Virus record (IMG/VR): IMGVR_UViG_3300014204_000125
Span: 32,001 to 96,000 of that record
Direction: 5' to 3' (one strand)
Length of the DNA stretch: 64,000 nt
Source of the DNA: a virus
Lineage: Duplodnaviria > Caudoviricetes
This document shows positions 24,930 through 55,209 of this stretch, piece by piece (within the stretch, counting starts at the first letter, position 1; every line of letters starts with the position of its first letter). A program made the translations under genes and the position numbers. The notes beneath the pieces are model-generated. The model saw nothing but the letters and a program-made list of their open reading frames with translations. It was not told the DNA's origin and did no database searches.

Positions 24930-25257
24930 TATCTTCCTCCCGTTTTATTTTCTTTGAGGTCTGTTTGATTATCTTTTTAAGCCAAGCGATTTCCTTGAGT
25001 TTCGTTTCCTCGTTCTTCCCGTAGCGCTCTATCAACCCCATCTTCGCCAGTTTCTCTGCGACATAGACCTCGAGTATGCCAGCGCATCGTTTACAAATAC
25101 AGCACGAGGGCCAATATTCGAAAGAAGTCTCTTGATTTAAACCCGAGGTTAAAGAGAATCGGCCGTCATCCTTTTCCTTTTCGCAGACATCGCAGATATC
25201 GATTTCTTTATCCACACGTTTATAAACTTTGACGGAGGTTTTGACTATTTTCTTCAT
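24922..25257 (-). CDS. Hypothetical protein with two CxxC pairs
   Basis: CDVC and CKRC; ATGA coupling. Confidence 0.6.
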   Translation of the reverse strand: MKKIVKTSVKVYKRVDKEIDICDVCEKEKDDGRFSLTSGLNQETSFEYWPSCCICKRCAGILEVYVAEKLAKMGLIERYGKNEETKLKEIAWLKKIIKQTSKKIKREEDND

Positions 25258-25748
25258 TCGTAAACCTCCACGTAATATTTATATTTACTCGCGAAATCGA
25301 GGAGTAAAGGTTTGACTTCATTTTCCCAATTAAGCCCGCCTAATCCGCACCCAATTTTTGGGAAAGCAATCGATGTTACTCCAGTGCAACCCAATTTCTT
25401 ACCTTCAGGACTTACGTGGTGCAGTATTTTTGCAAGCCCTCTTTTTATAAGTTCAATATCGGATTTCTCACGCCAATCCCATTTTGTAGGGAACAAACAA
25501 ACCGAATAATCCTTGTCTTGTTTATAAATATTATAATGGACCTTGGTGTAATCTTTTACCCCCTTTTCCAACTTCATAGTCACCAAACAAGACTTATAAA
25601 AATCGTTCAATCTTTTACCGAAAAGATCTTTGAAAGTTTTAGCCAATCCCGCACCCATAACCCCGACAAGATTCGTGGGGCATACCAACATATCGCATTT
25701 CGATTTAAAAATATCCCCGCCCTTTATTATTTCAAGATTATCCATCAT
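25254..25748 (-). CDS. Macrodomain ADP-ribosylhydrolase (DarG/TARG1-like)
   Basis: GDIF, N.VGVMGAGLA..FK, FPTKWDWR, SIAFPKIGCGLGGLNW. Confidence 0.88.
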   Translation of the reverse strand: MMDNLEIIKGGDIFKSKCDMLVCPTNLVGVMGAGLAKTFKDLFGKRLNDFYKSCLVTMKLEKGVKDYTKVHYNIYKQDKDYSVCLFPTKWDWREKSDIELIKRGLAKILHHVSPEGKKLGCTGVTSIAFPKIGCGLGGLNWENEVKPLLLDFASKYKYYVEVYE

Positions 25749-28425: not shown

Positions 28426-28835
28426 TGGTGGAGGTGTGGGAAATTGCATCCCAGTCCGAAGATCTTTCCCTGTCTTGATTTTTACACGCTTATCCCTTTT
28501 ACCCGCGGGAAGGGTGTCGGTTTTGAGGCGTTACCCTGTGTCATGGTAGAACAACCGATGCCCCATGATCCACTTGCGTTAGATTCTTTACGCGGATAAC
28601 TCCGTTGGCAAGTTCGCAGAGTTTTTACGCGGGCGTCCCCTTTCGGTTCGGCCGTGGGTTCACAATTAAGCGGCTAACATAACAGGAGCGAGTTCTTTTA
28701 CGAACAAACCTCTGACAATATTGTCCACCTGATCGAGAACTGAATTAGTTTTGGCAATTAGTGTTTGTGCATTAAGGAAGCACGCCTTTGCGTGACAAGA
28801 TAGTTCGTTATCTCCGTCGAAACTAGTTCACCCCC
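28426..28835 (-). ncRNA. ssrA: tmRNA (transfer-messenger RNA)
   Basis: 5' GGGGGTGAACTAGTTTCGAC pairs with 3' CACCTCC-A-CCA, including the G3:U alanine wobble. T-arm TGGGA-TGCAATT-TCCCA. Resume context TAATT|GCC. Tag frame 28755-28666 reads AKTNSVLDQVDNIVRGLFVKELAPVMLAA*. Confidence 0.95.
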
Positions 28836-34742: not shown

Positions 34743-35453
34743 ATGAATAATGCTAAAATCGAAAAAATGGAAAACCAGAAAATTGTTAACGCTTCCGCGA
34801 AAAACCTTGAAAACATGATACAAGGAAAACCGGTAGTTTTCCCTGTATCAATTCAGAACAAAAAACCGGAAAACGTTGAAACGAAAACCGAAAACATTAC
34901 CGAAAACGTGAAAAACAATTCCATTGTTATCGGACAGAAAACCTTGAACGTAAAAGTAAATATCGGCCCTATAACCCAAAAGTTTTTCGATCACGTTTTC
35001 GCCGAAAAACTCGAAAACTGGGAAAACAGCAAAAAAACCGCTTTAAAAAATAACGATTTGGACAAGCTCGAAAAACTCGAAGAAAACCCGCCTAAACGCG
35101 AAAATATCGAAAACGCTTGCTATTTTCAGGTCATAAACGCCCTGACCCTTACTCAAATTGCCATTGAAAGCAAATCAGTCCAGTCCGGCGTTCTCTCTCT
35201 CTCTAAGTCAAAATTGACCGGCAAAAATGTTAAAAACGCCGAGTTTTTCGCCGAGGACGTTGAAAACGTTTTGAAAACCGGATTATACAATTCTGAAATG
35301 GTAATAACGTTTCATTACGGTATCACGGATAAGGCGGGAGTATATTTCACCACGTTTTCAAATTTTGCACATACTTGCAAGGTCAATGGCGTCAATCCGG
35401 CAGAACGTAAGGCAAAAAGCCCGGTTTTTATCGGGACATTCAAGATAAGATAA
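34743..35453 (+). CDS. Hypothetical protein, first gene of the right arm
   Basis: 236 aa, AAAGGA RBS, very A-rich codon use, isolated by non-coding DNA on both sides. Confidence 0.8.
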   Translation: MNNAKIEKMENQKIVNASAKNLENMIQGKPVVFPVSIQNKKPENVETKTENITENVKNNSIVIGQKTLNVKVNIGPITQKFFDHVFAEKLENWENSKKTALKNNDLDKLEKLEENPPKRENIENACYFQVINALTLTQIAIESKSVQSGVLSLSKSKLTGKNVKNAEFFAEDVENVLKTGLYNSEMVITFHYGITDKAGVYFTTFSNFAHTCKVNGVNPAERKAKSPVFIGTFKIR

Positions 35454-36039
35454 TTTAAAATAGTTTTCCGGCCGGGTTAATACGGTTTGAAAAAACCGGC
35501 CCGGTCTTATATAGTTTATATTTTTATTCTTAAAAACGCTCTTTAACATATCCGAAAAACTATGAGAAAACAATGGTATAATCGTTTTCTTGATACCATG
35601 TATCAAGACCCGGATAAGATCCGATAAAACGATTAACACGTTAAAACGGCCCTTTATAAGACCTATTAAGACCGTTTTAAAACTTGATATCATGTATCAA
35701 GACAATGCTAACAAGCATTACCCGGAGTAAGTATTATAGTTTTGTATATTGTCTTTATACGCCCTTATCCGGCGTATTATCCGAAAAAAAACGGATAGAA
35801 TTTTAGCGCGATTAATCCGAAAAATTTTAACAAGTTTTGAAAATCATGTAAACCTTGACAGAAAACGGATTGACACGAAAAATTGATATCTTGTAAAAAG
35901 TTTTGAAACGTCTGAAAAATTTACGAAAAAAACTTTTTGCGATAAGATAGAATAAAATTTTTTAAGATAATACGGATATTAGAACGAAAAATCGACGCTT
36001 TATGACCGTCGATAGTTTTCGCGTTGCTCACGAAACGAG

Positions 36040-36472
36040 CCACGGCCAGTAGTAGTGTTACTTTGATAACATAGGCCGCGTGTTCTCCTGCATGACCCAA
36101 AGCGATATTGGTTTAGTGATAGACCATACCTCGCGGGAACAAAAACATAAGCATTGCAGGCGAGTTGATTCCCCTATGGAGTGCGCTTAATTCAGGCTGG
36201 AATCGGGAAGTCCTCTTTAAGACGGAGGCAAAGACGGGTAAAAACGATAGGCCGCGCTCACTATGTCCAAATGGGACGGCGCTCTTGAGTGTAAACATTC
36301 AAGACCTATCACTATATAGATCCGAAGATCGGGAGGAAATTGTATCCCTTGGATCGAGTATAGCCCTGAACACTACATGACAATAGGTCGGGGGCGCTGC
36401 GGTTTAGCGAACGGGCGTCCCTGGCTGCCTAAACACGAGACGGTCTATCAGAAATGGTAGGCCGTCTTTTTT
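36040..36472 (+). ncRNA. Candidate large multi-domain structured RNA
   Basis: Many nested helices closed by CGTGTT (36079) / AACACG (36432), ending at a strong terminator. No ORF with an RBS. Confidence 0.6.
36438..36472 (+). terminator. Rho-independent terminator
   Basis: AGACGGTCTATCA-GAAA-TGGTAGGCCGTCT (13 bp) followed by a T run. Confidence 0.85.
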
Positions 36473-36504
36473 ACATTCAAGACAAAATTTGGGAGGCGAT
36501 TATT

Positions 36505-39500
36505 ATGAACGGACAAATGTGGTATCTCAAGTATCACCCGGCAGACGGCCGCAAATTAATGTCACCTGAAACCAAGGCCAAAATCAAAACTATTCTCGAG
36601 GGTCTTGTTAAGGCCGGCAAAATTCATTCATTTTTCATCGGGTTCCTCGAAAAGAATAACCCCAAGACCGAAGTATTCAAGATCTCCAGGACAAACGATC
36701 ACAGGTGCGGCGCCGTCTACGATTCGATCGCTACGCTCGAAGGCGTTGAAAGGTTCATCGCCTACAGGGACGCAGACCACTATAACGCTTATGATATGTA
36801 GGATGTGATTATTATGGCGTCACAATTAAATAATCTGGAGGCTGAGGTCGAACTTCTCAAAGCTCTCAATGCCGCCTATCTCAAGCACAACATCAGCAGA
36901 GCGGATTATAAAAGGATCCGCGATGCTATAACCTCATTAAATTGGAGGGAGGAATAATTATGAAAAACGAATCCTGCGACATCTTCAATCTGGTTTACAA
37001 CGATTTTTCTAAAGGCCGCAACCTTGCTGACTCCACAGGCCAGATCTTAAACAGCTTGCCTCCCGTGTATAGGATGGCTATTTTGTCCAGAGTGTTAGAC
37101 TTCATGAACTGGGGGAAATAAACAATGGACGACGCAATATTTATGGGATCCCTGTTTACCCTGCTTTTCGTAATCACCGGGACGGTGGCATTATTCTTAT
37201 AATAAGACCCGCCGTCTCCGTACAAGACAGGCCGGCGAGACCCTTTATGCCTGTCCCTGTCAAACCTAAACCCCAAGACAATAGTTTCGCGGCTATCTTA
37301 GAGAGATACATGAGGTGATATTATGCAGTTATCAAGTTTTGTTGGACCCGTCCCGGCGACATCCAAGGAAAGGCGCACCCGGTTAAGGCTGTGCGTCAGA
37401 CTGATCAATCATTTTTTCTCTCCGATATATTGGGGCAAGACCAATTTCAATGATACCGAGTTCAACGCAATGGGCGAGGTTGAGACCATGCACTTAGGGG
37501 CACAATACAAAATTATGCCCTGCACTTTCGGTGGCGTATTCCAATTTCAAGGTTATCTTGTTTCCGGCCCCGGGTTCAAACAGGCGGTGCTCTATGAGTG
37601 AAATAACCCGGCGCATCCAGGCCGAGATCGACACGTGCAATCTAATTCTGTACTGGTCAATTCTGGTCTGCAAGGTTTCGTTCTGTGTTTTGATCACGGC
37701 CGTCATATTGACACGGGCCGGTATTTTAAAGTGAGGTGCATTATGTTCCCTATCGAAAATCGAATCCATGTTTTCAATCTGTCCTCGACTCGCAAGACCA
37801 ACGATAACATATACAAAGCGTATCGAGATTTCGTTCGCGCCAACCCCAATTTCAAGGCGTGCATTGTGTCGGAGAATTGTGGTCTTATCTGCGTTCAAAG
37901 CGACTATCACAACCTGACGGCGATGGAGGTCTATGGGGTCGAATTCATCAATAACGTAAAGAAGATGGAGGTGTAGCTATGCTATGTCACGCCAATGAGA
38001 GATATCAGTTGGTTCTCTCGATTTACAACGACATGCTCAAAGATGAGGTGTCGAGACTCGGACTCAATTCAATTCTGGATCTCAGTCAGGAATGCCGGCA
38101 GACCAAATGGATGACTGCCAAGGCCATGATTACACTGCCAATGCGTAATCTGGCGTATAAAAACAACGATGCGGCTTATATTTTACAGTAGGAGGCATTT
38201 ATGGACGCTATTTATCTTACCAAGACCGACACAATGGCGAAGATCGCCGCGACTATCGGGTATGGCGGAACAAAATTTAGGGTGCGCATTGAGAAAGGCC
38301 CGTTTGATCTTCGGAGTTATTGGGACGGAGGTTCCCGGGATCAGTATTATTTACTCGATATCAAGACCGGGCTTCCTCTTCCCCTGCGAACCCAGACCGC
38401 GCCGGCCGAGTTCGGTGGACATGCAAGTTCTTTCATGCTTGAACCCGGGCAGATTCTTGTTCGGCACTCAACATTCTGTGGCAAAGACATGGGACTCGAA
38501 CTCTCTGTTTCTCCCGACAATCCCGAGATTATTAAGGCGCTCATGCCGCCAGACTCGGGTATCGAACTGTCAGAGAATGAACTGTTCGTTCTCTACACCA
38601 TCGGACACTTGAAGTCATGCGCCAGACCTGACGAGTATCGCAAGGCTGGCTTCAAGACGGCAGAGATCGACAGAATAAAAGTGAAGCTCCTCCAGATGGG
38701 GCTTTTAACGAAGATTGGCGCCATCACCGTCGAGGGGCGCAACTTCGTCAATCAGGCCGCGAGCAAGCGTAATGTATCATCGCATTCGCTTTTCCCGTGG
38801 CAATGGCAGAAGACCCCTGAAGCCATTGAGGCAAAGGCGGTGTAATATGGTAGACTTCTTCGGACTCGGGCCGTCACCCGTTGAGGCCGGGTGTGTTCAG
38901 GTATTGTCAGGACAGCCTGAAACTTATATTGAAAGCTGTCGTGAGGTTCATAATTATGTAAACCTATTGCGGAAACTATTCGTCAATATAATAGACGCCG
39001 ATCGCATTTATTCCAAGAAATTCGATCACGACTTCGGCCCGTATAATGAGGCCGTTGTTAGTTTTGAGACTGACAACGAGGACCAAGTCAAGCGGGCTCT
39101 ATTTATCGAGTCCCACACCCCGGCGCATTGGATCCACGACGAAGACATTGTGCCGTACACCGAAAATCAATTCAATGAATGGGTAAAAGCCAAGTATGAG
39201 CCATTTAAGGAGGCGACATTATGAATTACAAAAACATATCTACCGATACCCTCGTAAGTATGATCCCTGGATTGTGCAGGACTTACCGATTCGCACACCA
39301 GGACGAAACGCTTCACAAACTGGTAAGTATTATCGCCGCGTTAGACGAACGTGGTTTCTACAAGGGGGCGATAATATGAAACGGTGGATTCACCCAGAAT
39401 TGGTTCAATACATCCGGGCCTTCGTCTGGAACCATCATAAACTCAAACGTGAAGACAATAAACCCAAGGTGTTCTGGCTGCACTATATCGTGGAGGAGTG

Positions 39501-40144
39501 TGGCCTCGCAATGGCAACCGTCAACCCGAAATTCAGACCACCCATATTCGGGACAATTCCTGTGAATCAGAAAGGCGAGATCAAAGAACGGGACATATAC
39601 GTTGCGTTCGAGGCACTTCAACCATATCATAAATGGTGTTTCAAAGCCCTGAACGAAAAGACAAGGAGGCGCTATAATGGTTGAGATTATATGCCCACAG
39701 TTCTACAAGGCCAAAGACCCCAAAGACAGACAGAAGGCGCTGAATTATCTCAACGCCTCGTGCTTCCTGAAACGCCAGGGAACCTTACAGCACTTCAATC
39801 ACAGATACGAGATGCTGCTGGCCGTGGCTAAACTTAACGAGGCCAAAGGGGTTGAGCATAAGCCTGACGCCAAGATAAAGTATCAGTTAATCTCGAAGGA
39901 CGGTTGTTACGTCAAGATCACAAAGATCGAATATGATTTTTTTCTTGCAATGGGGTTCGATTTCACGGAGCATTGCAGGAAGCCTGAGCCTCTTACGATC
40001 GAAGAGGCTATACAATTCACCCCCGAGAAGATGATAACCTATCACCACGATATCGATATGTTAATCGCAGACCAGAGGATCCCATTCAGAGATCGGGTAG
40101 ATCTCAACATCAAATTTCAAAATGCAAAGAAAGGCGTGAGTTAA
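36505..40144 (+). other. Early-region run of small hypothetical genes (e.g. 36505-36801, 37323-37601, 37979-38191, 38201-38845, 38847-39224, 39677-40144)
   Basis: Dense same-strand ORFs with GGAGG/GAGG RBSs; no recognisable functional motifs. Confidence 0.65.
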
Positions 40145-40293
40145 AATGATAGACGAGACAAGCGTAGAATCTATAACTAAACTCGGCCGGACAGAGATCC
40201 GGTATCGTAAAGACGGCAAGGTTGTCCGTGAAACATACAACGACTTCTCGGTGGCTATGAACCGCCAGAGAACGCTTGAAAGGGGTGAATAGT

Positions 40294-40878
40294 ATGAGTT
40301 TAAATCAAAAACAATCAGTTAATATCACACCGAGTTTCATCAAAAAATGGGATCCCTGCAAGCCCGGGCTTGACTGGTATCTCGAAAAGTTCCCAAAGAA
40401 ATTCAATAACTCGATCGGGGTATTGGACGCCTTAATAAAGGCGAATCAACTACCCTATGCAAACTGGCTGATTGTCCGAGTAATGTCAAGGCCGCAGTAT
40501 CTCAAATATGCGATATATGCTGCGGAGCAAGTTATCGGGATATACGAGAAAAAATACCCGAATAATCCGGCTCCAAGAAATGCAATCAAGGCGGCTAAAG
40601 CCGTATTGAAAAACGATACCATCGAAAACCGCAAGGCTGCTGCTGCTGCTGCTTATGCTGCTTATGCTGCTGCTGCTGCTTATGCTGCTTATGCTGCTGC
40701 TGCTGCTTATGCTGCTTATGCTGCTGCTGCTGATGCTGCTTATGCTGCTTATGCTGCTGATGCTGCTTATGCTGCTTATGCTGCTTATGCTGCTGCTGCT
40801 GCTTATGCTGATGCAAGAAAAGAAATGAGACTCAAGATCCTCAGATATGGGATTAAATTATTAAAGGCAGGTGAGTAA
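40294..40878 (+). CDS. Phage protein with an Ala/Tyr low-complexity tract (Imm-5-like helical domain)
   Basis: WDPC..GLDW, YAIYAAEQVI.IYEKKYPNN.APRNAI.AAK followed by AAY-type repeats. Confidence 0.7.
   Translation: MSLNQKQSVNITPSFIKKWDPCKPGLDWYLEKFPKKFNNSIGVLDALIKANQLPYANWLIVRVMSRPQYLKYAIYAAEQVIGIYEKKYPNNPAPRNAIKAAKAVLKNDTIENRKAAAAAAYAAYAAAAAYAAYAAAAAYAAYAAAADAAYAAYAADAAYAAYAAYAAAAAYADARKEMRLKILRYGIKLLKAGE
40636..40815 (+). repeat. Trinucleotide-based tandem tract of GCT/TAT/GAT codons
   Basis: About 180 nt built from (GCT)n interrupted by TAT or GAT. Confidence 0.95.
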
Positions 40879-41469
40879 TATGAGATACGGCAACACGAAT
40901 TATCGCACAGAGGCCCGCGTCAAGGTTGCGCCCAAACCGAAATTGTGATACAATAATTCCCAATCGTGACCACGAGATCGCGAAATAATAAATAGGAGGC
41001 GATAGTATGCAGCTACGCCTAAATACATTCACCTGAGGCATGGATTACCGAAATCAGAAGGCGACCCTGATGGACAAAGCGCTGTTCGAAACGGGGCTTG
41101 TATATGGTTACTCCAACCCGGAGAAAAACAAGATCAAACATGTCAACACGCATTATGCCGGCTGTCCCCGAGCATAAGACGGAGATCGTACCAAGGCAAA
41201 ATAAATCCTTGTTATATAATTGAAAGGTAAAGTGATAAAGATGGCCCTTACGGGATTTATTTGAACACCCGAATTGAAAATTTATATATAATATGAGATG
41301 GACATCGCCGCCCCTTTCCGGGGCCAAATCGAGAAGTAAAGCATCGCTGAAAAATAAAGATGCGGAAAGGACTGATTAAAATTAAAGTCTAATTTTTTTT
41401 TATATAATTGATATTTATGGACGCTGTTCAAGGCGTCAAGCGATTTATATAATACACAATGTTTCTCTT

Positions 41470-41508
41470 ACACATCCGGGGGCTGAAAAGACCTCGGGTG
41501 TGTTTTTA
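41470..41508 (+). terminator. Rho-independent terminator
   Basis: ACACATCCGGGG / CCTCGGGTGTGT stem followed by a T run. Confidence 0.75.
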
Positions 41509-41510
41509 AT

Positions 41511-44500
41511 TTGGGAGGTGCAGTTATGAACTGGGATAAAGAAACTGTTGGAGATTCAGATGTAAAAGAGGTGTTTCAAGAATTTTTCAAAAGATCAAAC
41601 TATATGTCAACCCAGATAATTGAATATTATAGACAGAAAAAACTTTTGTGCGAATTCAGTTTTGGTAAATTTTTAGATACCAAGATATACGGTTGCACTT
41701 TTCTCGAGATGGTTAAAGAAAATGGCTCGTGGAAGGCCCAAAGAAGGCAAGACCTCGATAGGGCGCTTAATGATAACACGGAAGCTCTGATATATATCAA
41801 GGAAACGCTAAACAAGGAGGCGTTATGATACAAGAAATAGATTTGGGTGTTCGATCCCGAGGCCCTTTATCCGAGCCTCATATTGCAATATCGGATTTTA
41901 GAAACAATCATCGAATAAACACAATGAAGGTTATTGAATGGCGCGCACAAATAGCAATGGATGCAGCCATGTTAGTATATAAACTAACAAAGACCGTAAG
42001 AATAAATATAAAAATAGAACCCACTCATTTCGGTACGGCTCCGAAAGTTGTAATCCAATACGACGATCAATACCCGAGAGACAAAAGCGTCGCTCTTTAT
42101 ATCAGATTCCATTTGCCCAAGAACTACCAGACAAGGAAACCCTTGTCTCGCAAGGCGTATTACAAACACATAAGATCTCTTCTGAAAATTATTGAATATG
42201 CAAAAGCAAGGGAGTGGGAAATATGAAGAAAATGGTAATGGTCGTGTATCCCACATATCTCGTCAGGCTCGGGTTGAAGCCTGAATACGAGATGATAAGT
42301 CAGGCCGAGGCCAAAAGGCGCGGCATCAAGAAAGAGGATATAAAGTAATTTTAAGGCGGGGTGTACGTTTATGAATGTTCCTTTAGATCTGTTTATCTTT
42401 TGCCTCGGTATATGTGCCGGGGTAGTATATTCTCAATTCATAAAATAGGAGGCGATTTTAATGAAATGTAATTGCAAAGAGTGCGGGGACAAGTTCTTTT
42501 CGAACCACGCCGGGATCAAGACGGCAACAGATTTCTGTTCGTTGTTGTGCGAGGCGGTTCACAAATTTAAGACGGGGGTGAGCGCATGAACCAATGCGAC
42601 GAAGTGCGTAAATGCGCGATATGTAACTATCCCTTTTGGATCAGCGATCTGGCCGCGTTAGATACTCCGTTCGGGGTATTCAATGTCTGCGATGATTGCT
42701 CAACAAAACATAACGCAAAATCCGACAAAGATGAGAATAAAGACGAACTTTCCAAGACCGGCGCAAGAGCCATCATAACTAATTATCAGGTTCAAATCAA
42801 ACACATGCAGGCTTATGTTGGTGATTTAATTACATATATCAAGGAGGCGTAACATGAGCGTGGTTTCAAATGGACTCAGATACTTCGTATTCCAGCATGG
42901 ACGCAAGATACGAGAGTTCGTGTTCTGGTGGCAAGTCCAACATTTCTTTCAGGAAAACGGAATAAATTTATAGGAGGGGATGCCCATGTTAAATATCGAT
43001 CAGAGACCGCCCCGGATTTACCTGAACATCAACGGCGAACCTATCAGATCAGACTTTCGTAATTTCTCCAGCGCAAAGGCTGCGTTAGACGCCATTCTTT
43101 TGCAGACCGACGTAACGGGTCAGAAGCGGCTCAGGAAACACAATGACATAATCGAGTTGTCCTTATGTTAGGCGAACAATCAAACGACACCTTCAAGATC
43201 GACTGGCCATTGCTCCTCGGGGGCCGGCCATGCAAAGACGATACAGATTGGAAAGAGAAACAGAGAAGCGCAGAGATCCTTCGCAACTGGAAGAGAGAAC
43301 AGGAGGAAGAAAGGCGATGAGTATAAAATTCAAACCCGGGCAGTGCGTACAGACCATCGGGATCTCATCCCAGTTCGATGACAACGCGACAAGGCCGCTT
43401 ATGATGCGGCACCTCGCCGGGGACTTCGGAGATGTCTCGGAAGACTCCAAGGAACAAAACGCACAGGCAATTAAGGATGAAGACGGCATGATTATGTCGG
43501 TGTATAAAGCAATCGCAACCAAGAAAGGCGATCTCCAAGATATATGGATCATCTCGTATGTGGCGCAGAACACAACTGTGCTGCTGCCCGAGGAGTATTG
43601 ATATGCAGAACTCAATAATCGGCAATATCGACATGGGTCCGTGGACAACCGTAATGGGATGCTGTTTCGTCATAAGCAATAAAGAGGTGTCCAATGTTTA
43701 TTGTTTAACAGAAGGCGTTCAACTCTGCGATTTTGTAATGCACCACCTAAAAGCGAATCACAAAGTAATGGTTGAGGGTGTATATTTTGATCCTCTAAAA
43801 CAATCCGATCTCAACAAGTTTATCGTGAAGGCGGTGACACTTATAAAATGAAATACATCGTACTCCACAAACATACCAAGCAATGCGGGCAGGACATGGT
43901 GGATTATATTAACGTGAATGGTAGTCACGGCGGAATCTTACATTTAATCCACGAGTTCGGGAAGACCCCCGAGAATCCCGTCATACTCGACACTGAGACC
44001 GATCCAATTATGAAACAGGGACTCAGGCTCGTAGCCTACGGCCCGTACAGAATGATCTGGGATATCTGGCCCGCCGAGGTAATATTAATAAAGGAAGTGG
44101 TGTAGTAATGGTAAATAAAAAAGACGAGGCTTTATTCCACATGGCGGTTGATATGATGGGCGGCGGCAACGTATCCTCAGAGACCCACAGGAAACTTGAG
44201 AAGTTAGGCGATACCGATTTTTCTTCCGTGGTATTCGATACGATCGATCTCGTAATGGGAGGCCGCTTGTGAGAACATTCAAGGAGATAATGGACGGTGA
44301 GTGCGCCAACGAGGCGTGTCATAACCCCGACCTTGACTCAATGCAGGGGCCGATAGCGTCCGGCGACACAATAGATCTGACCGTCGAGTGTTGCCGATGC
44401 GGCGCCATCTGGACGGTAACATACAAAGCCATCGAAACGATAACGATGAGCAATCCGGGGAGGAAAGAATGAAAACTAAATTACAATTTCTATTCAACGA

Positions 44501-46281
44501 TTTATACGAATACACGATGGGCTGCATAGGCGGCGAAGGCGAACAACTCGAAGCGATAAAAGAGAAGTATCTGAAACTAATCGCAGAAGAAAACTCGGGA
44601 CCGGACTTAGCAGACGCGCTCCAACACATTAAAGATATGGTAAGCGTAGGCGATAGCGCCAAGGCCATAGGCAATTATGCAAACGAAGTTCTGGCTCAAG
44701 ACATCCTGTCGAAAAGGGGCGGATGCGATGATCCCGCGACTTACGATAATGTGTTCGAAAAGTTGCACTCGAACGGGTTCTCGATAGTGCCGTCAGATGA
44801 AAATTCGGGGGTATTCGAAATGTGGAGGAAGAAAGACGGGGGAGAATATTCCGAAACCGTTGAAGTCGATAAAGACAACGAGACGGTGTTTTGCTCCGTT
44901 TATGGAATATTCTTTCATTACGAAGACGAACAAGGTATAGACTACGAAGAGTTTATCACAAGGGGGTAAATATGCTACAATCCGAATTCGAAAAACTGAT
45001 CGGGAAGCGCATTAGCGTCGAACTCTATTCTCAGGTAATCGAGCCCGTTTACACTTTCCACCCCAGTATTAACAATAAAGACGGCAAGTCCCAAATATGC
45101 GCCCTCTGGAATATAGGCGGCGAGATATTGTTGAGGGATATGCTGGGGACTGCCGAGAAGGCGAAAGAGATCGAGATCAATATTCGAGCATACGAAAATC
45201 TTATTAAAATTGAAAAGGCGGCAATAGACAAAGAAGCAGATGAATACAAGAAATTGAAACAGACGCGATACGATAACATTAACCTGTCAAACTTACGGAT
45301 TGCTGCACTCTGCACAGATTTAAAAGACATGGGGCGCTGCCCTATAAATCTGCCGGGGAGGGATGTTAAATGAAATGTAAGACATGCCAGCAAGATATCC
45401 CGATCGATATCAACTGCAATATCTGGGATCTCAAAAAAGACGATGTTATGGAGTATTTCGGCAGGGCCGGAGACTGCATGTTAATCATGAAAGACAAAAG
45501 GATCATCTGCGAATGCGATTGCAGTTTATCCACGATCGACGGCAATAAATTGATAGAAGACGGCGGCGAGTTCGTAAGTCGCAATATCAACGACGAATAC
45601 TCGAACTTGGGCGAGCAATACGATTTCGAAGCCTACTCGGAATATCTGGGGCGCTGGATGTACCGAAGGGTCAGCGAGGACACGAACGAGATCGAGATGG
45701 GAATCCACCCTGCAAAATATAAAGGTGGGCTTAACCCTTATAATCCCAATACTTATTTTGCAACAGGGAAGATCATTTCCCTGGGAAGCATAAGACCAGA
45801 CTGCAACAGCAGATTCTCCTATTATATGGGGGTAGACCTCGAAGGTCTTATAATCAAAATAGGAGGAAAAGAAAATCAGCTCAAGATCTCTCTGGCGCAA
45901 TATAATAACTTAAAAGAAATGCCGTGGAGCTCTCTATATTTCAAATTCGAAATAGTAGAAGACACTTTAATCAACGCTGTCGAAATAAACAAAGAGGAAA
46001 AGAACGATTATGTTCGCACCTTCGTCGGTACGGTCAATAAGGTGAGCCAACACGGAGGCCAACACACAGCCGGCAGTGAATACACGGCCGAAATTGAGTT
46101 AGCACAACTCAACCTCGGGAATCAGATAACCCAACACGGAGGCCGAAAGGACATAATAATTGACGAAAATTTCTTTCGTTACTTCGACGAACCCAATTCA
46201 TTCCATTCCACCTACCAGTTCAATATCGATGTATCGAATAACAAATTAGTCTCATACGGCAAATATAAAGGAGATGAGTAG
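41511..46281 (+). other. Run of hypothetical early genes (41511-41828, 41825-42226, 42586-42852, 42980-43171, 43848-44105, 44269-44472, ends at 44969 and 45373, 45370-46281 and others)
   Basis: Packed same-strand ORFs with strong RBSs. Confidence 0.65.
43317..43601 (+). CDS. Conserved plasmid/phage leading-region small protein
   Basis: F..GQ.VQT.G...RH..GDFGDV.ED...N..A...SVY...IWII...TTVLLPEEY motif. Confidence 0.7.
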   Translation: MSIKFKPGQCVQTIGISSQFDDNATRPLMMRHLAGDFGDVSEDSKEQNAQAIKDEDGMIMSVYKAIATKKGDLQDIWIISYVAQNTTVLLPEEY

Positions 46282-47161
46282 AATGAACACAAGCGAACGC
46301 ATTTACAACGAGGTAACGGACAACATCATCAAAATCCTGGAATCCGGAAACATCCCGTGGAAAAAGCCCTGGATCGGGGGTAATGCGCCGAGTAATCTTG
46401 TGAGTAAGAAGGCGTACCGAGGAATCAATTCGATCGTACTCGGATTCAGTCCATTCGCCAAGACGCCCTACTGGCTCACCCTCAATCAGTGCAAACAACT
46501 CGGGGGCTGGGTGCAGGACTTGAAACACCCGACATTAATCGTATTCTATGCCTTCAGGGATTACGAGAAGACCGATAAAAAAGGGGTTGTAAAAACGGAG
46601 AAGGTGCCGATGCTGAAGCACTACTACGTTTACAATTCGAGCCAATGCACAGGGCTTAAACTCCCTGAGACAAAGACGTTCGAGCACGCCCCGATCCCTG
46701 CGGCTTACAGCGTAGTCGAAAAATACCTGACGAAAGAAAAGATTCAGGTATCAGACGGAGGGCGCTGCTCATACTCGCCTTCATCGGATTCGATTACGAT
46801 GGTTCCCGTCACGCAGTTCCCAAAGATCGAGGAGTTCTACTCCACAATGTTTCACGAGATGGCCCACAGCACGGGGCATCAGACACGCTTAAAAAGGGCC
46901 GGGATTATCGAGTCCAACGGGTTCGGCAGCGAATTGTACTCAAAGGAAGAGCTCGTAGCGGAAATGACCGCGAGTTTCATCAGCAATGCAGTCGGGTTCG
47001 GTGAGGTCGCAATCGAAAACGCGGCCGCGTATATCCAGAACTGGCTCAAGGTTCTGAAAGATGACAAGAAGATGGTTGTGAGCGCGGCTGGCGCGGCACA
47101 GAAGGCGGCGGATTATATTATCGATGCGCCGAAGGAGGTTGTAATTGATCCGACTGCATGA
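46274..47161 (+). CDS. ardC: ArdC-family antirestriction protein (ssDNA-binding plus zincin domain)
   Basis: PWKKPW, N.VSKKAYRGIN, WLT.NQ...LGG, FHEMAHSTGH..RL.R, YSKEELVAE, AAYIQNWL. Confidence 0.9.
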   Translation: MSRMNTSERIYNEVTDNIIKILESGNIPWKKPWIGGNAPSNLVSKKAYRGINSIVLGFSPFAKTPYWLTLNQCKQLGGWVQDLKHPTLIVFYAFRDYEKTDKKGVVKTEKVPMLKHYYVYNSSQCTGLKLPETKTFEHAPIPAAYSVVEKYLTKEKIQVSDGGRCSYSPSSDSITMVPVTQFPKIEEFYSTMFHEMAHSTGHQTRLKRAGIIESNGFGSELYSKEELVAEMTASFISNAVGFGEVAIENAAAYIQNWLKVLKDDKKMVVSAAGAAQKAADYIIDAPKEVVIDPTA

Positions 47162-48000
47162 TTTAAAAAGGGCCGGGTTCGAAACAATGCAAAGGTGGGT
47201 GTGTGATTGCGGGTGTCCCCATTTCGTTGTTTCCACTTTAGGCGGAACAATCACCATAATCTGCGATAACTGCAAGGACTATCTTCATATTGTGGAGGCC
47301 AATAAATGACATGTTTCATAAGCGAAGACCACGGCGAAGCGACCCGCTGGTATCGCCACATCGGCATCTGCGAGAACTGCTATAATTTTTATTCGGGAAC
47401 AGAGTTAGACGAAATCATTAAGGGGAGGCGATAAAAATGGCAAAAAGATATACAATCAAACAACTTGAAGGCCCTTCAAATATTGCAACAATAAACAAAC
47501 AATACCTGAGCGACGATCAAATTCTTTTAGACCTGGCGAGAGATAGATACGAAAAAACTACAAATCCTTACTCGCCTCTGTCAAAGAGACTAAATAAAAT
47601 AATAGACAAACTTCGTGAAAAGATAAACAAAGACATCAGAAGAAAAAGCGGGAGGCACTAAATTGCTAAGACTTTTGGATGGTGGGAATTGAAATTAACA
47701 AACGATCTTCGATCCGATGATCTGTCGGACGCTGATAGAGAACATATCGCCAAGTGCATAAAGGAAGGATATTCAAGCAGGGAAATCGTTGCAGACGAGC
47801 CAAATGAGGTTCCCAATGAAACTTAAAGAGACATCTGAATTCATCGCTTGGGAACTCCTGAGCGATTTACAAGACAGGGCGGATGATCACACGGTCTGCC
47901 CCAAATGCAAGTCACAACTCTATTTCTGTGATTGCCCTCAGAACATGGCATGTGACATTTTCGTAAAGTATCTGGATAAAATAAAGGAGTTGGATGCGTA

Positions 48001-49665
48001 ATGGAAGTAAAAGAGACAAACATAAATTCGTACTTGAAAGAACTCAAGACGGCGAGTAATCTGACGGGGCCGAGTGAAGTGGATAAGCTGCCGGAGCCTG
48101 TTATTATACCCTACGATTCGACAAAAACAGATAATTCGAATCCTGTTGATCCAGCTCCGATTGCTCTGGTTAAATCAATCGCTGATGAATATCTTAAAAT
48201 GAAGGTAGCCGAGATCCCCGTTAAGATGAGCGAAGAGCAAAAGAACAACGTCGTTACTGCGATTCAGGATGCGTATGAAGACGTATCGAAGGACGAACTT
48301 CTTCCCGACCTTGTAACTGTCGTTGAGGGAAACCAAACCGATGTGGATCCTCATATAGTTAAACATATCGAGGAAAATTCCGAGATCCAGAGCGCAATCG
48401 TGAACACCAAGGACTTCCTGAATATTCTGAATGCGGCCGCGAAGGTGCTGCCGGTGATGAAAAGTTCCCCCATTTACACCATAAGGCTGGAGACGTTCGG
48501 AGGGCGGCAGGACAAGTCCAAAAACAAACTCAAGATCCAGACAACCAATCTCGAAGTCTATTTCATAAGCAGCCTTGATATCGACGAAGACGATGCGACG
48601 TTCGATATCATGCTGGATCCCAAAAAGATCGTTGACATCGTAAAGTCAATGACAACCCCGGAGATATGTCTCAAGACTCAGTCTTCCCGTAGTATGCTCA
48701 CGGTGGTGGGCCAGTTCTCGATGGAGATGCCATACATGGATACCCTAGATAATTACCCGAATCTGCCTTTCGAAGAAAAAAAGGAAGACAAGAAAACTGT
48801 CAGCGAACTCAATAACGCAAATATTAAGACGGTCGATTTTCTCAAGGCCGTCGAACAGATCGAGTATGCCAGGTCTGGGGACGCAGTGAAGCAGACATAC
48901 CAGAAACTTTACATCGAATCCGAACACGGGGAGGCGAGGCTTGCCTGCACCGACGGGAAGCGGCTCGGGGTGGCTAAGGTTGCCTGTGAAATCAACTCAA
49001 TGCCGAATAGCGAGCCATTCCTGAAGCGTTTCAAAAACCTTCTGGTCCCCGAATGCGTTACCGATTCCATAAAGGCGCTCAAGACGAAGGCGGAATTCGT
49101 TGCCTTTTCTTTTATCAAAAGATACAGTCTGCCCGTCACAGAGAAGCCCGAGTCACACTACGAGATCGCTAAATATGTAACCCTGATGCTCGGTAACAAA
49201 CTGACCGGGGATACCCGATACATATTCGCCAATGAAGGCGTATTCCCGAACATAGATGCAGTTATCCCTAAAGAAGACGCCGCCAAGGTCAAGTTCTATG
49301 CAAACAAGGAGATTTTTACAAAAGCGATCGCGGGACTCAAGCCGATATGGAAAGACACTGACTCCGTAACCCTGACATGCCGGACGGATTCGATTAGTTT
49401 GAGCGCCAGGAATGCGACAACCGCGGAAGCCGCAATAATCATCACTGAGAAGCTGAACGACATAGCGACAACCCAAAGTGATTACGCTTTCCTCGTCACC
49501 CTAAACCCGAGGTATCTCTCGGAACTCGTGTCAAGGTTCGACAAGAAAGATGCGATCCTGTTTGAAATCGGCGGGGCGTCGAGTCCGATCGTTGTCAGCC
49601 TCAAGGATTGCAAAGGGACAGTTCATATTCTGATGCCGATAAGGCTGGGATACACGGGAAAATAA
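48001..49665 (+). CDS. DNA polymerase III beta sliding clamp-like protein (copy 2) with N-terminal extension
   Basis: TTNLE, NYPNLP, ACTDGKRL, GVFPNIDAVIP, LNPRYL, SPIV and C-terminal ILMPIR are DnaN hallmarks. Confidence 0.85.
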   Translation: MEVKETNINSYLKELKTASNLTGPSEVDKLPEPVIIPYDSTKTDNSNPVDPAPIALVKSIADEYLKMKVAEIPVKMSEEQKNNVVTAIQDAYEDVSKDELLPDLVTVVEGNQTDVDPHIVKHIEENSEIQSAIVNTKDFLNILNAAAKVLPVMKSSPIYTIRLETFGGRQDKSKNKLKIQTTNLEVYFISSLDIDEDDATFDIMLDPKKIVDIVKSMTTPEICLKTQSSRSMLTVVGQFSMEMPYMDTLDNYPNLPFEEKKEDKKTVSELNNANIKTVDFLKAVEQIEYARSGDAVKQTYQKLYIESEHGEARLACTDGKRLGVAKVACEINSMPNSEPFLKRFKNLLVPECVTDSIKALKTKAEFVAFSFIKRYSLPVTEKPESHYEIAKYVTLMLGNKLTGDTRYIFANEGVFPNIDAVIPKEDAAKVKFYANKEIFTKAIAGLKPIWKDTDSVTLTCRTDSISLSARNATTAEAAIIITEKLNDIATTQSDYAFLVTLNPRYLSELVSRFDKKDAILFEIGGASSPIVVSLKDCKGTVHILMPIRLGYTGK

Positions 49666-49675
49666 AGGGGGTAAT

Positions 49676-52600
49676 ATGAGTGACGCGATATTCAGGATGA
49701 CAGCGAATGGCGACGCAGAGCTTGTCTGTTTCAAGTGCAAGACGAGGGTTGCGAAGACGATGATAGTGACTAACCGCAAGGCAAAAACGGAAGAGGAGGT
49801 TTGCGATGAATGTTTCCGGGACATAATGAATGAACGGCGCCAAGAGAAAGCGAAAAGGTTCCTTGACTGGCAGAAAAGACACCAATTCGATTCAGATTAT
49901 CTCGGACAGCTCGCAGTCAGGGTAATAATGAAGGCGGAGGATTAAATTAAAGCAAGCGGGGCGACAACTTCAAACCGCGAGGAGGCAAAATGAAGGGGTC
50001 AATCATTACCAAGAACGTAAGCGTCTACAACAAACTCACGGTTGACGAGCAAGTAAAAGCGAATCTAATAATAAGTGTAAACGTGAAAGGGGATCGCATT
50101 CGAATTATCAAAAACAGATTCGGGAAAGACGAATTGCTCGCTAAGATCAGCAAGGCGTGTCAGGGCAATATCGATAAACTCGCCGTTATCATATTTCAGG
50201 AGGTTGAGGGGTAATGGACGAACTGCTTTGCCCCAACTGCGGAAGTATTCTCGAACACTGTGACAGCGAGGACTCATGGACGGATTACTGGTGCGACAAC
50301 TGTGAAACCGGGTATAATTCGGGAGCGTTTGAATTGGAGGAAATAGAATGATTACATGGTGACAGTATAAACAGGACAGGGAACACGAGATCTGGTTGAG
50401 ATGGCGCAGGGAATCCTCTCCGGGGGAACGGGATCAGATGTGGCGGGATTACTATGAAATGAAGAACGGGAGGTAACACCCATGAATTTAAAAAAATACG
50501 GCTATATCCTATCAGTCGAAGACCATAGCAAAGAACGATGGGAAAAGCCAATGCGAGAAAACGGGATGATTGTAGGGCATGAAGTGGTCCACCATACCAA
50601 ATCTAAAAAACTCTACACCTTGGGATACGATTCTATTGCTTGGGGCTTTTTACCTGAAACAATTACATTAAATCTCTCGGTTGTTGAAAAGATATTAAGG
50701 GAGGACGCAAAGCGATGTGGGTAATATACGACCCTAAATCCTATGATGGAGTTGGATATTTTCAAATAGCCGCTTTCCATAATGAAAAGGATGCAAGATT
50801 GTGTCTGTCTCTCTATAATTACTTAAATGGTGCCGGTTTCTGGGAATTAAGGTTCGAGGCTAAGGCAAGAATACTTTATGTGTGAGGTGTAGAATGATAG
50901 TAATGACTGAAGAGCGGTATCTGTCGATTAACGATGCGAGCCGGCAGGACTACGGGGATTGCGCTATGCACAAAAACATCAAACAGGATCGTAATAAAGA
51001 GATCATGATTAAAAGAATGGTCGAAAAAGGCCATGCCCTCACAGAGAAGAGAGCAAGACTTCGCGAAGAATACAGAAAGAAATGCGAAGCCGGAGAAATG
51101 AGACCTCCAACCCGGATTGAGCAGTTAATCGAAAACGCAAATGCACACGAAGACCACGAGGCCACGTTAGCCGCAAGACGGTTGCTGGAAAAGAAAGGAA
51201 TAGATTGGAGGAACTACATTCTATGAGCCTACAAAATTATGTCAAGATCAGTGACGGCAACATCAAATTGGGTAAGGGGATTATTTACAGCGTAAGCCTT
51301 ACCCCCGGGGAATCATGCAAGCCCGGAGTCCCATGTTTCAAGCCCGCCAAGCAAGGCGGTGGGTGCTACTGCGCCAAGGCCATGAGGTTGTATCCGACGG
51401 TCAGGGCGGCATGGGGATTCAACCTGGATATGGCGAAGAACATGCCGGATAAATATTTCGGGGGCATTGAAGAATACATAAAGGAGAAGTCGGTTAAATT
51501 CTTCAGGTTCCATGTCTCGGGGGATATACCCTCTCAGGATTATTTCAGAAGTATGCTTATAACCGCGTTCGACTGCCCTGATACGAAATTTTTGTGCTTC
51601 ACAAAGCGAGATGATATACTAACTAAAAGTTTAAAAGCCAAAGCCCATCTGCCCCGTAATATGAAACTAATATATTCGGTCTGGCCCGGAGTCGAGCTAC
51701 CCGACAGATCGAAAATGTATTACAATGGCGAGCCGATTCCGTTTGCGTGGGTGTTAGACCACAAGAATCCAGACCCTCGTATCCCAGAGGACGCATTGAT
51801 ATGCCCCGGCAAGTGCGACCTGTGCTTTATGTGCTGGGATGCAAGGCATGACATTGTGTTTCCAAAACATTAGGAGGTTAGAATGACTAAATATCAACCC
51901 AGATGGGTCGCGTTCTGTCGGGTTCACAGAATACCAGAAGATGTCCACGACAACCCGCCTAAAGAAAATATAAATCACACAATGGTGAATATAATGTTTA
52001 CCCAGTGGATCGACACAATGATACATCAATTATTCCCCGTCAAAGAATGGGGCGATCATTGCTCGGATAAACAACTCAAAGACATGGACAAATACATTAA
52101 CTCGATGCCGGCTAACACAACGCCAAGTGAATTGCCAATGTATTCAGAACAGAAACATTAGGAGGCGAAGATGAAATGGACCGTGCGAAAGTTTTGTTTT
52201 AGTTGCAAAAACCAAGATATTAAGCCTAAATGCAAAAAATGCTTGCGGTTTTCTTTATGGGAGGCGCAAGACTCCATTTTGGAAGCAGTAAAAGAAATGA
52301 ACCTAAAAGACGAAAACACAAGAAGAATTGGATATCCTTTCTTGTCAGGGTTTCTTAGACCGGATCCAAGATTATTTTTAGAGTAGGAGGCCAGTATGGG
52401 TCATAACCAAGAAGTAATTCAAGGCTTACTACAACTCGATTACTGCGATCGCCAGACGCTTCAAAGCATTGATTGCAGCCTGAGCAATCTGGTTGAAGAA
52501 GTCAGGAAAGCGAATAAACTGAAGGCGATCGAAATCTTGACAGCCCAAGGCGCAATAGGGGCAAATGAGGCAATTGTAAGAGTAGAGGAGATGGGATTGC

Positions 52601-54317
52601 GTGAATGAAACATGGCAGCAATTTAGCGAACGGATCTGGAGTTTAAAAGCAGACTTCAACCCGTTTCTGGTTCAAGATGGCTGGATAAGTCAAGTCGCGG
52701 ATGCTTTAAAGCGAGGTGAAAATATTCCCGAAAACATTTTAACATCCCATTCCGAAATCGAATTTAAAGATGGGATTCCATACTGGAGGCGAACTTATGA
52801 ATGAGCCCTGCGAATTCTTTCTCGCAATCGCAAATTATACGGACGGAACCGTATGCGATTGGACGATAACGGCAACCCAAGAACTCGCTCTTGAATTCCT
52901 TGACAAGACAGGCAAGCGGGTGCTCACAGAACAAGCGAGAAAGGGCATGGAATTGTTTCATGCAAGTGATTTGAAATGTTTCGTACTAACGGGGGTATTG
53001 GAAGTGAGGGAGCAATGAACGAAATAAAAGATATTACAGTGTTCAATAAATTTATAAAACAAATCGAAAAAAAATATCCCGATATTGTGGCGGGGTTTCA
53101 AAGCGCAGAGGACACATTTATTCCCGATACAATCGGCTTCGTAGCGCACCCTGCGAATATCAACGATAAAAAGCGGGTATCGGTTTTGGTTGGGATTCGA
53201 CCTCCCGATGACATAAAGCCTTGTGAGCATTTTTGGTCATGGAGGAACCTTGGTGACATAAAAGACCTGAAGAAACGCATTCTGACTCTTGTAGAAAAGA
53301 TGGTGAATGAATGAAGAAGCTATGGGCGGTGTTCAAAAAGAACTCCAAAACATTTGGAAAATATGTTTTTGCAGATGCCTATGTCAATAAACTAAACGCT
53401 CAAGCTTGCGAAAGATTAATAAAACAATACGAGGGCGGCTGGACGAAAATTGAAAAGTATTTCACGAGTCAAAAGGAGCCATTAATGTATCTCGCAATCT
53501 TGACTTTACTCAACGGGGACCTCTATAAAGTGAAAGTCTTCACCCGATACAAACAAGCAATGGCATGGGCCAAGTGGGTCACTAAAATCGACGAGAAGTC
53601 GAGGGTCGGGAATATCAAAGTGAATATAATTAAGGCGGAGGTGGAGGATGAGGCTTAAAGAAATATCCTATGATAACTACAATCGCCGGCTTCAGCGACT
53701 TGAGCGTAAGAACCTCGAAACATGTGGATCCTCGACTTCATGGGTATCCATTGGGAACCATGCTTCGAATTTCAGGGGGATTAAAGAATGCAAAATGGAC
53801 TCTGAGACCCTGATAATTGACGAGGACGCATTTAAACAATTAAGGGATAAATTCAAAAGATATTGAGGTGGAAAATGAATCTGGTGTTTACAAAAAAAGA
53901 CGCTAATAAAATACTTGGAAGGTGTTCAGGGTGCGGCAGGGAGATTTTAGTGGAACATCTTCCCGGAATGTCCCATCTATCTCAGATCGATCTCGATTTA
54001 GTAACTTATTTCACATGTCCGAACCCCAACTGTGTATGTAGCAGCGGAGGAACTTCAGAGGCAGAGGGAAAGGACTTAGTTAAAAATCTTATTAAAATTT
54101 AAGGAGGCAAACTATGTCAAAACTACCCTGGGGTGCTGGTAAAATAGTGAAGCAATTCAAATCGGTGGATCCCCATCTCATCATCGAGTTCGAGAAATAC
54201 CACAGGAAAGTTATGCGACAACATTTGGCAAACGCGGCTGAGGAGAAGAAAATGATCCTTGTCTTGAAGGCGATTAGAAAGGGCAAGGAAAAGAAACGGG
54301 TGAATCGTGAAAAATAA
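49676..54317 (+). other. Run of small hypothetical genes (about 15 ORFs of 60-115 aa)
   Basis: Packed same-strand ORFs with GGAGG RBSs and ATGA overlaps. Confidence 0.6.
51223..51873 (+). CDS. Phage gp88-like Cys-rich (radical-SAM-related) protein
   Basis: GN.KLG, SL.PG.SC, CYC, FRFHVSGD, FTKR, CP..C..C..CW...FPKH. Confidence 0.7.
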   Translation: MSLQNYVKISDGNIKLGKGIIYSVSLTPGESCKPGVPCFKPAKQGGGCYCAKAMRLYPTVRAAWGFNLDMAKNMPDKYFGGIEEYIKEKSVKFFRFHVSGDIPSQDYFRSMLITAFDCPDTKFLCFTKRDDILTKSLKAKAHLPRNMKLIYSVWPGVELPDRSKMYYNGEPIPFAWVLDHKNPDPRIPEDALICPGKCDLCFMCWDARHDIVFPKH

Positions 54318-55209
54318 CTGGGAGCCGCCGCTTCGCAATGTCGAGTTAATGCCTGTTTCCGGCGGGAACTTAAAGGCATTACTGAACTCTGGGGCGGATG
54401 CCATTTACATTTATGACATCGGCCCGCATTTCGAGTATTACTGTAACACCGAGGAGATCTTGGAGTCCCCGGGGCTACAGGGAAGGATCGTGGAATGGAT
54501 CGATCATCACACTTACGCTTGGAAATCCGAGACCCTTGAGAAACACAAGTTTCTACACATTCGAGAATCGCTTGCGTGTTCGAGCCTCGTGAGCCAAATC
54601 CAAATCAGACCGAGGCAAAGCGTAACGATCGCGTATTCGAATGATGTAGATGGGTTCATATCGACCCTGATAGCGTTATGCGAAAACAAAATGAGCCTGG
54701 ACGGACTCTTTACTATCTGTGGGGTTGCCCAAGCCTGCGACACAGCCGACTTCATTCGGAACCCCGAGGCTTTGAAATGGCACAAGGCGGTATCCGCGAA
54801 CAGGCATTACAGGCTCATCTGGGATCTCTATGAAAGCGTGAGCAAAAAGGAAACCTGGTGGAATCAATGCTCTAATTTCAAGAAGTCTATCGAGAAGTAC
54901 GATAAGACGATTCTACCGGCGAACCAGAGAATGATAAAGGAAAGGAGGTGCTATAAGGGGGTGCCGATCGTAAACTCGGCATTCGTCGATATCTGTGATA
55001 TATCGTATATCGCGGATTATTTGAGGAAGCAATCTCGTTTCTTGGTAATAGAAAGCAACGGGGCAATCAAAGTTACATGCAACGACCCCGGGATCAATTT
55101 ATCCGCGATATTCGGCAGCATTGGCGCGCCTTTTAAGGTGTCAATAAAAAGAAAAGGAAATGTCTTGACACCCGAGGCGATTGTAGATATAATATTATCG
55201 AGGGTATAA
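54307..55209 (+). CDS. DHH-like phosphoesterase with atypical motif order
   Basis: IYIYD, then WIDHH, then NDVDG. Confidence 0.45.
   Translation: MKNNWEPPLRNVELMPVSGGNLKALLNSGADAIYIYDIGPHFEYYCNTEEILESPGLQGRIVEWIDHHTYAWKSETLEKHKFLHIRESLACSSLVSQIQIRPRQSVTIAYSNDVDGFISTLIALCENKMSLDGLFTICGVAQACDTADFIRNPEALKWHKAVSANRHYRLIWDLYESVSKKETWWNQCSNFKKSIEKYDKTILPANQRMIKERRCYKGVPIVNSAFVDICDISYIADYLRKQSRFLVIESNGAIKVTCNDPGINLSAIFGSIGAPFKVSIKRKGNVLTPEAIVDIILSRV

Follow-up and report, generated by a model that had tools for sequence, protein, structure and literature searches.

What kind of element occupies the gene-free stretch of about 430 nt that stands in front of the early genes of this phage, and does it act through its RNA? 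The stretch (positions 36040–36472) lies in the window, the 64,000 nt of DNA that were analysed, which are bases 32001–96000 of a complete phage genome of 115,335 bp with direct terminal repeats; positions given without a genome or contig name are those of the window. Genes to the left of ~32,000 are on the minus strand and include the structural genes, a sugar pathway and a tmRNA, and those to the right of 34,700 are on the plus strand, with small early ORFs first and replication genes after them (encoding an ArdC-like protein, RecT, a DnaB-like helicase, RtcB and a DnaE-like polymerase). The stretch heads this rightward arm, downstream of an orphan gene (236 aa) and of 580 nt rich in AT, and it directly precedes the first early gene, so that the position at the head of the early arm given in the preliminary description is correct. 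The upstream gene already has a hairpin of its own that resembles a terminator (~35413–35440, read from the sequence). There are nine promoter-like sites in the interval 35300–36900 where 3.4 are expected, and these include TTGACA-17-AAAAAT at 35855–35883; a second TTGACA box was read from the sequence. The features that frame the stretch are as follows.

28426–28835, minus strand: tmRNA, identified by cmscan.
35855–35899, plus strand: candidate early promoters, with two TTGACA boxes (35855 and 35870) and weak −10 elements.
35986–36037, plus strand: two small hairpins where the GC content starts rising, seen in the sequence and as a generic hairpin match; possibly the 5′ portion of the transcript.
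36505–36801, plus strand: first early gene, encoding a 98-aa orphan protein, with a GGGAGG ribosome-binding site at 36491.

Several other features of the surroundings deserve mention. The AT-rich region upstream of the RNA contains two copies of a 21-bp near-palindrome, CTTGATA(C/T)CATGTATCAAGAC (35589–35609 and 35684–35704), which resemble operators bound by a regulator of the early promoters. In the central non-coding gap are the two 360-nt windows that fold best in the entire genome (32261–32620 and 33701–34060; −3.4 to −4.0 sd), and they do so on both strands, a symmetry that suggests DNA-level inverted repeats (an origin or operators) rather than RNA. Two genes have likely counter-defence roles, one for an ArdC-like antirestriction protein with an ArdcN and a zincin peptidase domain (46283–47161, plus strand) and one for a Macro-domain protein (25254–25748, minus strand). 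An HDFGPY motif is invariant in a small early protein (38847–39221, plus strand) that has no Pfam family and is common to very divergent phages (L014:1995–2318, minus strand; L024:2062–2352; L026:10001–10321; L028:10001–10291); the protein is also encoded on a 73-kb contig from the bin of a Candidatus Saccharibacteria MAG, and contigs of Acidobacteria MAGs encode its C-terminal part.

The stretch is non-coding, as first proposed. There are stops in all six frames and no credible ORF on the plus strand of 36040–36474, and the longest ORF present (71 aa) has a TTG start without a Shine-Dalgarno sequence and no real homologue among 1.84 billion representatives; two matches to it were rejected as summed matches to a tandem-repeat protein. 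We therefore reject a protein-coding reading. The description of the stretch as a GC-rich island is correct relative to the upstream flank (0.48–0.49 in the stretch versus 0.27–0.32 across 600 nt upstream), but the downstream coding DNA has the same GC content, and it is thus an island on one side only. It belongs to no catalogued RNA family, which also agrees with the preliminary description. A cmscan search of Rfam gave nothing for the stretch at the gathering threshold in the window and four noise matches at E ≤ 10 on 35700–36700; there was no covariance-model match to GOLLD, ROOL, raiA, OLE or HEARO, nor to any group I or II intron, RNase P, tmRNA, SRP, 6S, T-box or riboswitch model.

A closing helix enclosing several radiating domains had been proposed from the sequence alone, and every one of the helices listed at that time is present at its place in the minimum-free-energy fold of 36079–36437, with pair probabilities of 0.7–0.99. 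The predicted fold has five sub-domains, in agreement with the proposed multi-domain architecture. These and the flanking elements are listed below with folding z-scores for individual domains, of which those for P2, P5, P6 and P7 (−2.6 to −4.7) are inflated because the domain borders were picked after the fold was known.

36043–36078, plus strand: weak upstream stem-loop CGGCC...GGCCG, −9.5 kcal/mol.
36079–36084 with 36432–36437, plus strand: P1, the closing helix CGUGUU/AACACG; CGUGU/ACACG (36079–36083 with 36433–36437) has a pair probability of 0.87.
36085–36164, plus strand: domain P2, nested helices with a GUGA-capped end hairpin; z = −2.6, versus −1.0 on the minus strand.
36165–36206, plus strand: domain P3, the hairpin UUGAUUCC/GGAAUCGG; pair probability 0.5–0.7.
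36207–36245, plus strand: purine-rich linker, predicted to be mostly unpaired; z = 0.0.
36246–36310, plus strand: domain P5, a three-way junction containing the second AUAGGCCGCG copy at 36247–36256; z = −4.7, versus −2.2 on the minus strand.
36312–36363, plus strand: domain P6, a long hairpin; z = −2.6.
36387–36425, plus strand: domain P7, a 12-bp hairpin containing G-U; −22.1 kcal/mol, versus −7.6 on the minus strand.
36437–36474, plus strand: intrinsic terminator with a 14-bp stem, an AGAA loop (stem and loop 36437–36468) and a U6 tail, −21 kcal/mol.

Within P2 and the other domains the pair probabilities are mostly high: 0.94 for CCUGCA/UGCAGG, 0.99 for GCGA/UCGC, 0.98 for UGGUUUA/UAGACCA, 0.97 for GAUAGG/CCUAUC, 0.71 for GUCC/GGAC, 0.98 for UCUUGAGUG/CAUUCAAGA, 0.95 for CUAUAU/GUAUAG, 0.99 for GAUCCGA/UUGGAUC and 0.95 for GUCGGGGGCGCU/GGCGUCCCUGGC. 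The helix UUGAUUCC/GGAAUCGG has a probability of 0.70, and P3 alone is not significant, since its z-score is −0.9. The 3′ strand of P1 (36432–36437) abuts the terminator, for which the preliminary description gave 13 bp and we count 14 pairs. The RNA would be about 430–570 nt long, depending on where its transcription starts.

How unusual this folding is depends on what is compared. The whole of 36040–36472 folds better than shuffles, with z = −3.72, but much of this score comes from the terminator, and for the core (36079–36436) the effect is modest, with z = −2.29 and two of 150 shuffles equally good. Compared with 360-nt windows of its own genome, GC-regressed, the core departs from expectation by only −1.5 sd, and it is absent from the 25 best-folding windows. 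The folding is strand-specific, as had been claimed: the reverse strand of the core has z = −0.38, and P7 shows the same asymmetry. The further argument that many G-U pairs reflect selection on structure does not hold, because these make up 11% of pairs (15 of 139), an unremarkable proportion. We regard the thermodynamic support for the predicted fold as moderate.

The relationship of the terminator to the genes that follow it is informative. Its end at 36474 is only 30 nt from the ATG of the first early gene at 36505, and this gap is taken by the ribosome-binding site at 36491, such that no promoter fits between the two. Promoter-like sites on the plus strand of 36500–55165 are not above chance (40 found, 34.6 expected), and there is no second convincing plus-strand terminator in 19.6 kb, where terminator-like matches are also at chance (24 found, 19.6 expected). 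With no later promoter above chance, transcription of ~18.6 kb of early genes appears to require passage through this one terminator, although the argument from a promoter-poor operon is a soft one because the middle promoters of phages may look unlike sigma-70 sites. A perfect TTGACA-17-TATAAT promoter, the sole 12-of-12 match in 19.6 kb, is present at 55165–55193, inside the 3′ end of the ORF at 54307–55209 and ~120 nt upstream of a 139-aa ORF that precedes the RtcB ligase gene (55739–56944); it may mark a separate transcription unit.

The sequences on either side of P1 suggest a means by which passage of the terminator could be governed. P1 is immediately flanked by the upstream hairpin on its 5′ side and by the terminator on its 3′ side, and the arms of these two hairpins are nearly the same in sequence. 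The 3′ arm of the upstream hairpin, AUAGGCCG (36071–36078), pairs with the 5′ arm of the terminator, CGGUCUAU (36441–36448), over 8 bp, and this zipper directly extends P1 across a 3-nt bulge. The chance of an 8-bp helix that extends P1 is, as a rough estimate, ~0.01. An exact 10-mer, AUAGGCCGCG, occurs twice in the RNA (36071–36080 and 36247–36256), and a near-copy of it, GUAGGCCGUC, makes up the terminator 3′ arm; each of the three copies (36071, 36247 and the terminator 3′ arm) is able to pair with the terminator 5′ arm. The best upstream pairing of the terminator 5′ arm is with the P5 copy at 36247 and not with the zipper copy at 36071, and it is this P5-copy pairing that does better than dinucleotide shuffles in 496 of 500 and in 298 of 300 cases, figures that apply to the P5 copy. 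Upstream pairing of the terminator 3′ arm was considered and discarded, as 338 of 500 shuffles are as good and it is not above chance.

Partition-function folds of nascent transcripts show a defined order of events. In transcripts ending at 36448–36458 the zipper has a probability of 0.8–0.9 and the upstream hairpin 0.03, and from 36462 onward the terminator dominates; the order of zipper and then terminator is identical whichever of three 5′ ends is assumed. In the full-length RNA, the terminator state (−149.4 kcal/mol) is favoured by 10.5 kcal/mol over the zipped state (−138.9 kcal/mol), and the zipper is thus favoured over the terminator only at nascent lengths.

We propose that the early operon has in this stretch a structured 5′ leader that acts in cis as a transcription attenuator, a reading that we put forward tentatively and rate at somewhat below an even chance. 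Transcription would begin in the AT-rich promoter region, and the weak hairpin at 36043–36078 would form first. The multi-branched domain of ~350 nt would follow, with P1 joining its ends. The terminator 5′ arm, as it emerges, could then pair with AUAGGCCG and lengthen P1, and with this antiterminator in place the polymerase would enter the early genes. Alternatively, if the upstream hairpin or the terminator wins, transcription would stop and a discrete RNA of ~430–570 nt would be released. From the modelled folds, such a switch may operate in vivo; the large central domain could act as a sensor or a nucleator, and the signal might be a host factor or else an early protein of the phage, which would give shut-off. 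The attenuator reading is compatible with the terminated product also acting in trans. Several features count against it: the terminator state is the more stable one at full length, a 350-nt centre with five domains far exceeds what an attenuator needs, and in the distant relatives the zipper complementarity was either not found or, in L024, marginal.

Large structured leaders and early RNAs have precedents as a kind in GOLLD, ROOL, the phage K lncRNAs and the leader of plasmid pLS20, and the closest parallel in design is the last of these. The conjugation operon of pLS20 has a 456-nt leader, described in 2026 as the zipper-type attenuator cATT-pLS20, in which a long central stem becomes an antiterminator once it is lengthened by pairing between the 3′ arm of a weak upstream stem-loop and the terminator 5′ arm, the terminator and antiterminator states being nearly isoenergetic (PMC13401043). 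Both elements are long 5′ leaders of long operons on mobile elements of SD-using (probably Gram-positive-like) hosts, and both have an intrinsic terminator at the 3′ base of a central structure, just before the first gene. They also share a weak upstream stem-loop with a 3′ arm complementary to the terminator 5′ arm, a pairing predicted here to exclude both hairpins. There are differences of several types. The centre of the phage element is a 350-nt five-domain structure with a 6-bp closing helix instead of one long imperfect stem, and its terminator state is clearly favoured at full length, by the 10.5 kcal/mol given above. It is present in a virulent-looking phage and not a plasmid, there is no sequence similarity between the two, and we identified no conAn1 or conAn2 downstream of the phage RNA.

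Searches for homologues of the RNA were uniformly negative. Blastn in distant mode against 50,697 cultured phages gave no match, and scans of IMG/VR with the 98-aa protein, the 236-aa protein and the DnaE-like polymerase gave no close relative. A search of 5.8 billion clusters with the 98-aa protein, an orphan, retrieved only the protein itself. Because the nearest polymerases are only 37–39% identical to the DnaE-like polymerase, the phage is alone in its genus-level group. Since the RNA is a singleton the evidence is weaker than usual, and, as no recognisable relatives were found in the collections searched, its fold is a predicted one.

More distant phages can nonetheless be compared at the level of genome position. 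The nearest genome compared, G001 (115,414 bp), is syntenic, with proteins 22–55% identical to those of the window phage. The head of its early arm is a GC-rich, ORF-free region of ~950 nt that closes with a terminator, 45 nt ahead of the first early gene, and the same RNA is present on a metagenome contig, L026. A comparable RNA is on another contig, L024, which is more distant still.

L013:425–1375, minus strand (= G001:9424–10374), and L026:1215–2335, plus strand: RNA of ~950–1090 nt.
L024:1–485 (FRDC01001458.1), plus strand: RNA of at least 445 nt, with the contig starting inside it.

The G001 RNA folds at z = −5.0, versus −2.1 for the other strand, and the RNA of L026 is 87% identical to it, with three hairpin-sized insertions. 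A segment of ~280 nt is 100% identical between the two, compared with 75–90% in the flanking genes. Of 269 consensus pairs 31 vary without a single one being broken, and in 15 of the 31 both partners have changed; a control with slid partners gives 0–2 both-side changes and 28–38 broken pairs. From this comparison of sequences the G001/L026 RNA is real, and it has no match in Rfam and seems to represent a separate, new family of large phage RNAs. The genes after the terminator differ between G001 and L026, and RNA and terminator thus behave as a module. The L024 RNA ends in a 13-bp terminator and folds at z = −7.7 with it and −5.7 without; the first gene is 170 nt later and small early genes follow it. 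A further GC-rich structured stretch is present at L024 540–650, before the first ATG at 657. The layout in the distant relatives is therefore a long structured RNA, a terminator, and a first early gene within 30–170 nt, with RNAs of ~0.45 kb in the window phage, at least 0.45 kb in L024 and ~1 kb in G001/L026. The contigs L020 and L022 end before the RNA position, and in L028, a contig in a Saccharibacteria MAG, there is no clear RNA analogue.

On their sequences, the RNAs of the window phage, G001/L026 and L024 are positional analogues and not demonstrated homologues. Covariance models built from the window phage (G000; model R1), the G001/L026 core (R2) and L024 (R3) found only generic hairpins in the other RNAs (E 0.002–0.4, in stretches of 0.7–1.3 kb with filters off), and nhmmer and blastn comparisons between the early-arm RNAs gave nothing. 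A 17-mer of the conserved G001 core is found in IMG/VR in G001 and otherwise in chance matches alone. Two apparent similarities were rejected. The first is a 21-nt blast match in G001, which is inside a coding gene and attributable to chance; the second is a set of colinear 7–8-mers shared by the window and G001 RNAs (AGACGGG, CCGCGCU and GGACGGCG), for which the three covariance models, nhmmer and blastn give no support for homology. The zipper complementarity was not found in the G001 or L026 RNAs by shuffle-tested pairing, and in L024, whose 5′ end is missing, it is marginal, with 14 of 300 shuffles as good.

The strongest alternative to the attenuator is an autonomous early non-coding RNA that acts in trans, comparable to GOLLD, ROOL or the phage K lncRNAs. 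An early promoter would produce it abundantly, it would serve as a decoy, scaffold or ribozyme directed at a host or phage target, and the early genes would be expressed by leak-through. We consider this doubtful, although several observations fit it well. The size and multi-domain architecture are beyond regulatory need; the strong terminator is the equilibrium state and would set a 3′ end; and related phages hold larger RNAs in the same slot, of which that of G001/L026 has the 15 compensatory pairs and that of L024 folds strongly with or without its terminator. The phage also invests in RNA functions elsewhere, with a tmRNA and RtcB. GOLLD (RF01998) and ROOL (RF03087), ornate RNAs of phages and prophages, are likewise large, multi-domain and non-coding, and have no known function. 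There is further precedent in phage K (Kayvirus), a large virulent phage with abundant early lncRNAs of 635 and 1154 nt (lnc001 and lnc002), which are intergenic, near tRNA genes, and of unknown structure and function (PMC9241854). However, the window RNA has no homology to any of these: it matches neither the GOLLD nor the ROOL model, and it has no blastn similarity to any cultured phage. There are no tRNAs near it, and its position is that of a leader before early genes. A trans-acting RNA would also leave expression of the first early genes unexplained, as there is no promoter after the terminator, and it would make the zipper complementarity a coincidence, at roughly p = 0.01. The terminator 30 nt from the first gene, the zipper-type complementarity and the lack of a later promoter or terminator for ~18.6 kb point more to a cis-acting leader than to the free-standing decoy, scaffold or ribozyme suggested earlier, and on the favoured reading the RNA is a switchable leader that would decide transcription of the early genes.

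It is quite unlikely that the stretch has no dedicated RNA function and is a decayed gene or spacer that folds by chance, closed by an ordinary terminator of the upstream unit. The modest z-score of the core and its small departure from the genome background are what such a spacer would show, as are a GC content the same as that of coding DNA and the lack of any homologue or covariation for the window RNA. But the genome is densely coded and there is no open frame here, the upstream gene has its own terminator-like hairpin at ~35413–35440, the folding is strand-specific, and three related lineages keep a long structured RNA and a terminator in the slot, one with clear covariation.

Processive antitermination is a further mechanism to be considered, in which the fold would stay with the polymerase and allow it to bypass terminators of the early arm, as with the put RNAs of phage HK022, EAR and conAn2. 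The put RNAs are cis-acting elements of ~70 nt with two stem-loops that act processively; they are just downstream of early promoters and govern terminator passage without a phage protein. Although the stretch has a put-like place, just behind the early promoters and with a terminator and a long operon after it, we regard this as very unlikely, because there is one convincing plus-strand terminator in 19.6 kb and no series of terminators to bypass, there is no similarity to an antitermination RNA in Rfam, known elements are several times smaller, and, unlike put, the RNA has a single terminator and an alternative-pairing design.

If the attenuator reading is true, one RNA fold would decide the expression of ~19 kb of early phage genes, and the zipper attenuation described for a plasmid in 2026 would extend to a virulent-looking phage, with a much larger central domain that is possibly ligand- or protein-sensing. 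A broader and unlikely proposal is that the clade keeps a fixed slot behind its early promoters, which its lineages fill with different large sensor RNAs that set read-through, forming a riboswitch-like master checkpoint that has a host or phage factor as the ligand and diversifies as fast as counter-defence loci. The presence of mutually unrelated, strongly structured long RNAs in one slot points to a little-studied form of phage gene control or host takeover, and these RNAs, one of which has clear covariation, are concrete candidates for structure probing and cryo-EM.
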